Shown here: in pieces, positions 26,650 to 29,600 of the stretch
How the letters are laid out: every line of letters starts with the position of its first letter
How positions within the stretch are numbered: position 1 is the first letter of the stretch
From: Podarcis pityusensis
Lineage: Eukaryota
Length of the DNA: 64,000 nucleotides
NCBI GenBank assembly: GCA_964106645.2
Contig: OZ067054.1
Strand: one strand, 5' to 3'
The notes under the pieces: generated by a model
The model's database searches: none
Told to the model about the DNA's origin: nothing
Seen by the model: only the letters and a program-made list of their open reading frames with translations
Made by a program: the position numbers and the translations under genes

Positions 26650-29600
26650 GAACGCACTTACTTCCGTGTAAGGCTGGGGGGGGGCGATGTCGGGAACCGA
26701 ACTTTTATTTAGGAAAGATTTAAGAGGCTGCAGCGCACCCCCTCTGCGTATTTGCACGGAAGCATGCACAGGTTTGCAGCAGCAGAGGCCACGAGAGCAA
26801 CCAAAGAGCAGAAAGGGTAGACTGTCTTTGGAGAGGGAAGCTCAATTCCTTGTACCAAATGGCGAGGCGCCGACAAGGAGGAAGGGCTGCCGGGCGGGAA
26901 GCAGCTTGAGCCGGCGCGCCGAGACGCGGCTGCCCTAATAATTTTTTTAAAATGCCCCCCGCCTCGGAGCTCCCCTCAGCCGCTCGGGCGCCCAAACGCT
27001 CGACTCGCGTTGCGCGTCTTCCACAACCTGGGCCGCGTGTTCCAATCGCGCGGATCTCGCGGTGCTCTGTATCCTAGCAACCGGAGGTGTCTCGGCGCCA
27101 TCTTGAGTAGGCACATCCGGCCAGCAGACAGCGGCCATCTTGAGGGACGGTCGCCCTCCCTCGAGAGCTTTAGGACGCCATCTTGAAAAGCCCGTATTAT
27201 AAGCCGCCAAAGGGACGATTAGTAACACGCCGTGTTTGTTCCCGCCTTCAGGATCCGAGCAATTTAGTACGTCAGCGCCATCTTGTTTGGCTTCTGATTC
27301 GAATGGTTCTCGCCATCTTGGATCCATTTTGAGAAGTGCCAGAGCTATCGCCATTTTGGGAGGACCCCCCCCCCACGCACGCGTCATTGTGCAGAGCAAC
27401 TAGCAAGGAGCGGGAGCATCATGTAATTCAGCGCTGTGCCATGTTTATTCTTTCTCGACTACATCCGGGAACGTAGTACGGAGGCTTACTGGAACTAGGG
27501 TGAAGCCATTTTTGGCCAGTGTTCCGCCCATCCGGGTATCCCAAAAGCAGCCATCTCGGATGCGTATATGTCTGCAGAAGGCACATACGGGTATACGGCG
27601 GCGCCATATTGAATCCCAGAACGCGGGGAGAGCTGTATACGGGCATTTGAAAAAGACGCCATTTTGGTCTTGTGTTTGAAAAGGCGGAGGCACATCCGGG
27701 CAATTTGTGGCGCCATATGTGTTTTCTGTTTTGTGACAGAATAGCAAAGGGGTGGAACCAAGATGGCAGCTTCCAGGAAAGCATGAAACCTAAAGTTTTG
27801 ATAATTTGTACTCAGTACATAAGCACCGCCGGATCGGGGGTCGAGTAATTAAATCCAGAATGAGGTTCAGAAACGGGCAAGATGCAGCGAAAGCAAGAGA
27901 AGCATTTTTAAAGCAAAAGGCAGTGTGCCGGGACCCGGGGCGCGACCAATGGTGGGTGGGTGCAGCAGGTGGTTGAGGGGACTGACATGGACCGTTAGGC
28001 CTCAAAGGGCAGAGCCACGCCATGTATTCAAAGCACGCGACCTCCCCCCAAGGACTCCTGGGAGCTGTAGTTTTCCCGTCACGGGGCGGCTATCCTCGGC
28101 CCCCTGAAACTATGAAGTGTTTGGGAGTTGCGGCGTGGAGGGAGTGCCACGCGCTTTATATGTGCACTGGAAGTGCTTTAGACGTCTGGCGCGGATCCGC
28201 TGCATCCGCCATTGGCACTGCGAGCAGAAATTTCTTTTCTCATGGAGGAGCGTTCACGTGCTTATGCAAGATAAGCCCTTCATCTTTATCGAAGATGGCG
28301 GCGCCCACAGGGTTGCTATAGGAGAGGGAAGCGTATGGAGCCTCCCTGCAGCATTCGTGGCCGGCGTAAGCAAGGCGGCCAATTGCAGGCAGGAAGAGGG
28401 GCAGTTGTTGTTTTCGCCCAAAAGAAGCAAAGAGGGCGGGGCTTCCTGTTCAAAATGGCGACGCCCACATAAACGTTTTATCTAGGTACACAACTTATTG
28501 TTAGAAGTGGCTCCGGCGACTCGCGTTAAATTCACAAATTATTATTTTTTTAAAAAGTGAGTAAGCGCGGTGAAAATGCGGCGCGCAGTCTCCCGCACAA
28601 ACGAAGCGAAGCCCGCAAAAGAAAAGAGGCGGAGCCCGAATGTCCACAAAGATGGCGGTGTCCAGGCTGCCCCGCCCCTCAACATGGCGGCGCCCTGGTG
28701 GGAGGGGTTCCGTACGGAGACCTCGCCGTGGCCCCGCCCATCGCCGCTGCCGAGGAAGAGAGACTCCTCACAGGCGCAAGATGGCGGCTCCCAGGGCGGC
28801 GTGAAGGCGCCTGGAGCCCGCAGCTTGCCCATCGGTGCCGTACAGCGGGGGTGGATCGAGCGGCCCGTTGCGCCTGGAAGGCGGAGGGAGGGAGGCCTGG
28901 CTTAGGGCTCCGGGTCGCGGGGGCAGGCAGGGTCGGAGGGGGAGACGCGGCGGGTGGGGGGGACGAGGGGGAGGCGGCTTCTCCCTCCCTGCGGCCGCCA
29001 TTTTCCGTCCGGGCAACACAAGATGGCGGCTCCCAGGGCCGGGCTCTGAGCGGGGGCCGGAGGGGGGCGGCAGAGGGGCCCTGCTGCGGGCGGGGTGGAG
29101 TAACTGCCCCGCGCGGGGTAGTTCCCTCGGAAGGGCAATTGGTAATAGTTTTTCGAAAGTGGGGAGGCAACTAGGAGGCAGTTTTTGTTTCGGCCCCCAC
29201 CCCTCTTCCTGCCACACGGGGAGGGCGTTTGCCCCATAGGGAGGCTGCATTCCGGGGGGGCCGCGCCAGGCGATCCGAACTCGAGGAGCGGAGGGTTAGC
29301 AGCTCCTCCGCAAAGGGGCGCCTCCGCTCGCTCTCGGGGCAGCAACCTCCCTCCTCCCCCCACATAGGAAAGAAAAGAATAGGTATTTGCTTTTCCAATA
29401 GTTTCTTTTTTGTGGGGGTATACATTTCTCAGCATCTCATTTTCACAACTACTCCGAAGTAGTTTGTTGCAGCAAGGAAGTGACTCCGGCTTAGTTCCCG
29501 CGGTGAGGGTTGTTGTAGCAGTAGTAGTCAAGAGAGGACTTGGGGGGTGTTGTGCCCCATTTAAGGCGGGTGTTTTGACCAACCACCCTGGAAAAAAAGT

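Follow-up and report, generated by a model that had tools for sequence, protein, structure and literature searches.

The CpG island between TMEM187 and HCFC1 of the lizard Podarcis pityusensis carries 18 strict YY1 motifs in two opposed halves, each facing its own gene. We conclude that this array is real and, although unusually large and dense, belongs to an established class, at a locus where a YY1 cluster has already been described. The point at which the motifs change orientation is probably the boundary of two regulatory halves rather than a pair of start sites. All coordinates refer to the window, i.e., the whole stretch of 64,000 nucleotides that was analyzed (GCA_964106645.2, contig OZ067054.1).

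The gene pair and its YY1 array

The original prediction, made from the letters of the window, had named the two genes, and both identities hold: the open reading frame at 15955-16800 on the minus strand matches Pfam PF15100 (TMEM187, E 2e-103), and the exon at 29784 on the plus strand gives a Kelch_HCF match. Contigs of runs guessed to be RNA cover 15825-16911 at TMEM187 and exit the window at the HCFC1 donor 30003 in four of four runs. Exon 1 of TMEM187 (at least 26632-26759) is spliced to the acceptor at 17309 in one 151-nt contig of run X19 (depth 2.1), whose loose-end letters map to 17281-17309 (29/29). The following features make up the promoter setting.

15955..16800, minus strand: 281-aa coding sequence of TMEM187 in a single coding exon (ORF, PF15100); splice acceptor 16911, read from the sequence
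17075..17309, minus strand: non-coding internal exon of TMEM187; acceptor 17309 seen in the spliced contig, putative donor 17074 from GTAAGT
26632..26759, minus strand: 3′ part of TMEM187 exon 1; donor GT 26631, second donor 26661
26600..29400, no strand: CpG island without TATA box, bounds approximate (CpG o/e 0.92-0.96 in 27001-29000; TATA scan)
29784..30003, plus strand: coding part of HCFC1 exon 1 (Kelch_HCF match); donor after 30003

TMEM187 (minus) and HCFC1 (plus) thus lie head to head on one common CpG island, the arrangement of a divergent CpG-island promoter. Bidirectional promoters are usually defined by starts less than 1 kb apart; here, the two starts are probably separated by 1.3-2.2 kb, with the HCFC1 start hinted at near 29000. 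CCAAT, GC-box, NRF1 and TATA motifs are absent from the array region or present without enrichment. Some further observations concern the surroundings. In a close relative (organism D), the GT of donor 26631, which the spliced TMEM187 contig uses, is changed, and the GTAAGT donor at 26661 would remain. TMEM187 intron 1 (18070-25970) contains several high-copy repeat fragments; the contig depth, when summed, is very high at 18070-19057, 21528-22515 and 25480-25973. Additional CpG-rich stretches of the window are found at 59001-60000 (o/e 0.80) and 63001-64000 (o/e 0.66).

The array itself consists of two parts and the flip between them.

27097..27719, minus strand: TMEM187-facing YY1 block, ten strict sites and two near-matches, spacing 35-100 bp, spacers without homology
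27720..27759, no strand: orientation flip (motif scan)
27760..29027, plus strand: seven HCFC1-facing YY1 sites (motif scan)

A motif scan of the window detected ten strict GCCATnTT sites facing TMEM187 (27097, 27134, 27177, 27277, 27312, 27350, 27438, 27505, 27603, 27658), near-matches at 27550 and 27712 on the same side, seven AAnATGGC sites facing HCFC1 (27760, 28292, 28452, 28649, 28681, 28778, 29020) and a lone reverse strict site on the HCFC1 side at 28997. These are exactly the 18 strict sites and two near-matches that had been predicted, and the accompanying expectation of fewer than one site per 2 kb is borne out: in 2000 dinucleotide shuffles, 26901-29200 held 0.43 strict motifs on average and four at most, and none of the 2000 reached the observed 18. 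The remaining 61.7 kb of the window contains 11. The longer form CGCCATnTT is present at 14/18 strict sites and GCCGCCATnTT at five, namely four HCFC1-facing sites and 28997. In the densest 600 bp of the array, ten GCCATHWY motifs were counted, and none in the 600 bp around the start codon. With these ten GCCATHWY per 600 bp and 14 CGCCATnTT in 2.3 kb, the array falls under the YY1 cluster definition of ECMFinder (at least three cgCCATntt per 500 bp, at most 5 kb from a start).

Along the array, the strict sites are ordered as ten minus, six plus, one minus and one plus; a single minus-to-plus switch with at most one exception arose in 0.055% of permutations (p = 0.00055). The claimed polarity therefore stands for the strict sites, with 28997 as the one exception, but it is less clean when relaxed 5-base cores are used, which bring in two further reverse cores, 28019 and 28208, in the HCFC1-facing half and one forward core past the TMEM187 block, at 26859.

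Repeat content, second motif and conservation

A series of like motifs might also have arisen neutrally, through tandem duplication or from a repeat family carrying the YY1 motif. A search of the genome (1.52 Gb, 336 contigs) returned 257 tight same-direction YY1 triplets, and many of the 100 listed are minisatellites or dispersed repeats; moreover, a few two-copy similarities of 21-31 nt occur inside the array. However, shared sequence within the array is limited to the motif and short flanks, the spacers being non-homologous, and the stretch is single-copy in the genome apart from one repeat fragment of 70 bp at 28016-28083. A YY1-motif minisatellite or repeat family was rejected, as there is no unit beyond the motif and no copy elsewhere except for this fragment. 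At 12 triplet loci examined (seven distinct places), at most eight strict sites were found in 3.1 kb; some of the listed minisatellites are longer than these loci, but one-directional. The tight flip pattern, which would overlook flips with a wide gap, has 18 genomic matches, of which only this locus is CpG-island-like (o/e 0.88 vs. 0.08-0.64) and exceeds eight strict sites (18 vs. 2-8 at the others). Reversed-pattern controls for the triplet and flip searches gave 0 matches and were set aside, since reversal makes CpG words. As the orthologous human region is, in addition, bound by YY1, we regard a neutral origin as extremely improbable.

Since human YY1-bound elements sit at AKT1S1 and CBX3, the upstream regions (30-40 kb each) of AKT1S1 and three chromo-shadow genes were inspected; they contain at most two strict sites per 500 bp. 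Four sites upstream of AKT1S1 (minus, minus, minus, plus, over 1.7 kb) have outward polarity too, but are too few to weigh. Elsewhere in the genome, minisatellites with a unit of 31-35 bp and one YY1-type motif per unit were noticed at C1:84058940, C4:17296937, C5:3752684 and C5:5021665, two of these arrays being near-identical on different contigs. CpG-rich YY1 clusters with 6-7 sites in a single direction are also located at C1:3183254-3183520 (L020) and C1:79.286 Mb (L027-L031); in the latter, GGCA accompanies GCCATnTT five times, and CACGTG words are paired with it as well.

Two further elements lie among the YY1 sites.

27192..27700, no strand: six AT[A/C]CGGG words in the TMEM187 block (27463, 27530, 27585, 27637 and 27694 on plus; 27197 on minus)
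28016..28083, no strand: dispersed-repeat fragment with a ACTACAnnTCCCA-like word (40 matches in own genome; summed DNA depth 1967 in its bin)

We take the ACTACAnnTCCCA-like word to be of the ZNF143/THAP11 type, a motif class that recruits HCF-1, and the AT[A/C]CGGG word may be THAP-like or ETS-like. The latter, a motif picked after inspecting the sequence, occurs six times in the TMEM187 block vs. 0.2 expected, is absent from the HCFC1 side and is found once in the other 63 kb. The general THAP-like pattern TnnGGGnW occurs eight times vs. 3.1 expected in the TMEM187 block (12/1000 shuffles) and eight times vs. 6.9 on the HCFC1 side, an excess too weak to name a binding factor. CATMCGGG together with YY1 was tried as a genome-wide promoter module and rejected; the 92 matches are mostly repeats by eye. 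A GGCA half-site after GCCATnTT, forming a THAP1-type composite, is present at two of the 18 sites (27097 and 28997, near both outer ends) and missing at 16. THAP1 is described as having a GGCA core and as co-occupying promoters with YY1 and HCF-1 (PMC13631171).

The orthologous cluster is present in the close relative and, according to the literature, in human (PMC6158500). One contig of organism D spans the array. Among the 40 of 73 differences listed, ten substitutions fall in 27090-27557 and none of them in a strict core, which does not establish constraint because only about 1.4 core changes would be expected; one substitution turns the near-match 27550 into a perfect site. Among the matches listed, metagenome contigs contained no distant vertebrate HCFC1 orthologue (at least 11 loci: nine invertebrate-like HCF, two unrelated kelch), nor did genome contigs (two unrelated matches). 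The nine invertebrate-like HCF loci are without an upstream YY1 cluster. One of them (L009) has three CAT[A/C]CGGG words 57-87 bp upstream of the HCF match, with none within 500 bp upstream in the other eight. One of these three words has 12 letters in common with 27580-27591 of the window. In five other HCF loci (L010-L014) and in L017, CAT[A/C]CGGG is found at +600, and these loci also have two YY1-type sites in sense orientation, at +183 and +373.

Transcript starts and the orientation flip

Transcript evidence comes from contigs of a related species (organism E), namely five of six listed runs that are guessed to be RNA. Such contigs cannot show a start, and the positions where they begin are a weak hint. 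Two features bear on these positions.

28905..28975, plus strand: G-rich quadruplex-type tract (pattern scan), which confounds apparent 5′ ends
28991..29015, plus strand: candidate main HCFC1 start zone (contig starts; Inr; reverse YY1 site 28997, with GGGCA six bases later)

In four of the five runs, from three studies, a deep HCFC1 exon-1 contig without loose ends begins at 28991, 28995, 29000 or 29011, about 1.25 kb from the flip; in the fifth run (X19), it begins at 29171. The DNA run goes on upstream of 28991-29011. Nevertheless, sequencing or assembly may have produced the common contig start artificially, because DNA run X9 is also broken between two contigs at 28963-28988 and the quadruplex-type tract lies just upstream. 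A gap in the cover by RNA-guess contigs at 28143-28918 carries no weight, since filters drop records. The Inr consensus CCATTTT is located at 28998-29004 (A at 29000), inside the reverse YY1 site 28997, and the forward site 29020 follows about 20 nt downstream; here the sequence agrees independently with the contig starts. The last YY1 site supplies the ATG, in strong Kozak context, of an 8-codon upstream ORF (29023..29049, plus strand); this ORF opens roughly 20 nt downstream of the candidate start and could restrain the translation of HCFC1.

As the original prediction had stated, YY1 motifs are strand-oriented downstream of starts; they are described as lying within about 30 bp of the start and as able to serve as cryptic initiators on both strands (10.1101/2023.06.27.546584; PMC11160661). 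Of the seven HCFC1-facing sites, six precede the contig start; on this weak hint, only 29020 fits a position 30-50 bp downstream.

The flip at 27720-27760 had also been proposed as the point from which the transcripts diverge. In that case, both genes would start there and all motifs would lie downstream in very long first exons (2.2 kb, 1.1 kb). The downstream strand-specific YY1 rule does fit the first site on each side, minus-strand Inr-like words occur near the flip (27744), and four short contigs of low depth (2-6) cover parts of 27089-27868. However, these contigs are no deeper than intronic ones, the YY1 rule spans 30-50 bp and not 1.2 kb, and the deep HCFC1 contig begins near 29000. 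Furthermore, starts at the flip would leave 21 (HCFC1) and 24 (TMEM187) upstream ATGs in the leaders, many in strong Kozak context since the motif reads AAnATGG, as against two and two for starts at 29000 and 27090. Thus, given the contig starts (a weak hint), the Inr within 28997 and the upstream ATGs, the predicted divergence point is doubtful, and we consider starts at the flip quite improbable.

Comparison with known YY1 clusters and a proposed mechanism

The mammalian HCFC1 promoter has a cluster of about six YY1 elements. Near human HCFC1/TMEM187, the element PRE41 is reported to contain four GCCATHWY in 600 bp and to be positive in YY1 ChIP, and knockdown of WDR5 lowers both HCFC1 and TMEM187 (PMC6158500). 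The HCFC1 promoter has been used as positive control for YY1 ChIP (PMC4363909), YY1 and HCFC1 co-occupy promoters (PMC3668359), and the YY1-site variant c.-970T>C of Huang 2012 raises HCFC1 (as cited in PMC11078748, PMC4215287 and PMC13089016). The array resembles the human PRE41 / c.-970T>C element in the gene pair, the CpG island and the presence of several YY1 motifs ahead of the HCFC1 coding sequence. The prediction of a YY1-type array in the divergent TMEM187/HCFC1 promoter is supported by the island, by each half facing its own gene and by YY1 binding to the human counterpart. The density differs, with ten GCCATHWY in the best 600 bp here vs. four in the 600 bp of PRE41 and, at most, six in 740 bp in the PMC6158500 table of 61 human fragments; this hints at an expansion without showing it, because the list is ranked on several motifs and covers 600 bp only of the human locus. 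In the literature found, mostly non-subscription, there is no description of human motif orientation or of a TMEM187-side block; the primary HCFC1 papers may give orientation and non-mammalian counts.

An orientation flip in a YY1 cluster already has a precedent in intron 1 of YY1, as described in PMC2743690. Like the array, that cluster is not a repeat and has two opposed halves; its orientation is conserved and needed in reporters, and a feedback role is assigned to it. In contrast, it comprises five sites/100 bp in one gene, whereas the 18 sites here are spread across 1.9 kb and lie between neighboring genes. In mammals, the YY1 clusters of Peg3 and 30 further genes likewise have at least three motifs per 500 bp near the start, and in this established class number and spacing vary between species (PMC2665242). 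HCFC1 is absent from the 31 genes with YY1 clusters listed there, which says little because the list is without any X-linked gene; imprinting is not suggested here. The start-proximal YY1 core-promoter motif finds a likeness in the pair 28997/29020, i.e., an initiator-type and a downstream site, but the models presented for it have sites within about 50 bp of the start and a second effect at about 200 bp, not kilobase arrays (10.1101/2023.06.27.546584; PMC11160661).

The precedent in YY1 intron 1 also bears on a structural role (looping, nucleosome positioning, methylation protection), in which orientation would serve protein geometry and not initiation. There, two opposed intragenic halves are found and inversion abolished reporter activity (PMC2743690), and human PRE41 is classed as an MLL1/2-Trithorax response element (PMC6158500). 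However, helical phasing was not detected among the 12 TMEM187-side sites (Rayleigh p 0.07-0.86), and a structural role gives no reason to expect each half to face its own gene. We judge it decidedly improbable.

Our preferred account is that the two-sided 18-motif cluster is likely bound by YY1, is probably the counterpart of the human HCFC1 cluster and has transcript starts at its outer ends; taken as a whole, we give it a somewhat better than even chance. That the cluster is functional and orthologous to the human YY1 cluster is very likely. Occupancy of the array by YY1 is predicted as likely and, as at human PRE41, would keep the island open and H3K4-methylated. Orientation would follow the YY1 rule, by which initiation is favored just upstream of AAnATGGC on that strand, and therefore each half would favor transcription toward its own gene; because the published rule concerns sites just downstream of starts, it covers the outer two sites directly and the inner ones by extension. 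Productive HCFC1 mRNA would start from about 29000 at the outer end, with the reverse site as initiator and 29020 just downstream, and TMEM187 would likely start at the outer end of its own block too. With starts at the outer ends, most sites would consequently be upstream activating or modulating sites. Since HCF-1 is a cofactor of YY1 and of THAP proteins, HCFC1 would be able to sense its own product through the array.

Alternatively, the inner sites may be staggered upstream initiators, each seeding weak initiation in the direction of its gene, whose long, untranslatable, AUG-laden transcripts dampen the main promoters in a YY1/HCF-1-dependent negative feedback. All strict sense-facing sites are strong-context AUGs, because the motif reads AAnATGG on the sense strand. 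According to the literature, YY1 depletion reduces initiation just upstream of the motif, reporter assays reveal repression by many YY1 sites, and human HCFC1 rises when one YY1 site is lost. On the other hand, contigs over the block are indistinguishable from DNA carry-over, and the human variant is accounted for just as well by ordinary repression through YY1; we find this reading unlikely. Quite unlikely, too, is the proposition that the inner sites are orientation-locked initiators firing AUG-packed leaders, with YY1/HCF-1 throttling both genes by interference in a switch larger than in mammals. If true, such a leader-interference switch would explain the rise of HCFC1 after loss of one YY1 site in the MRX3 family.

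Should such a two-sided array also exist in mammals, our result would amount to no more than a fuller annotation of a known element. In people, the dosage of HCFC1 is critical, and a single YY1-site variant causes intellectual disability. A very dense, cleanly polarized version of the element is well suited to testing whether the orientation of YY1 motifs works via start-site choice; the prediction is that mRNA starts are set by the outermost sites, with another function for the inner ones.
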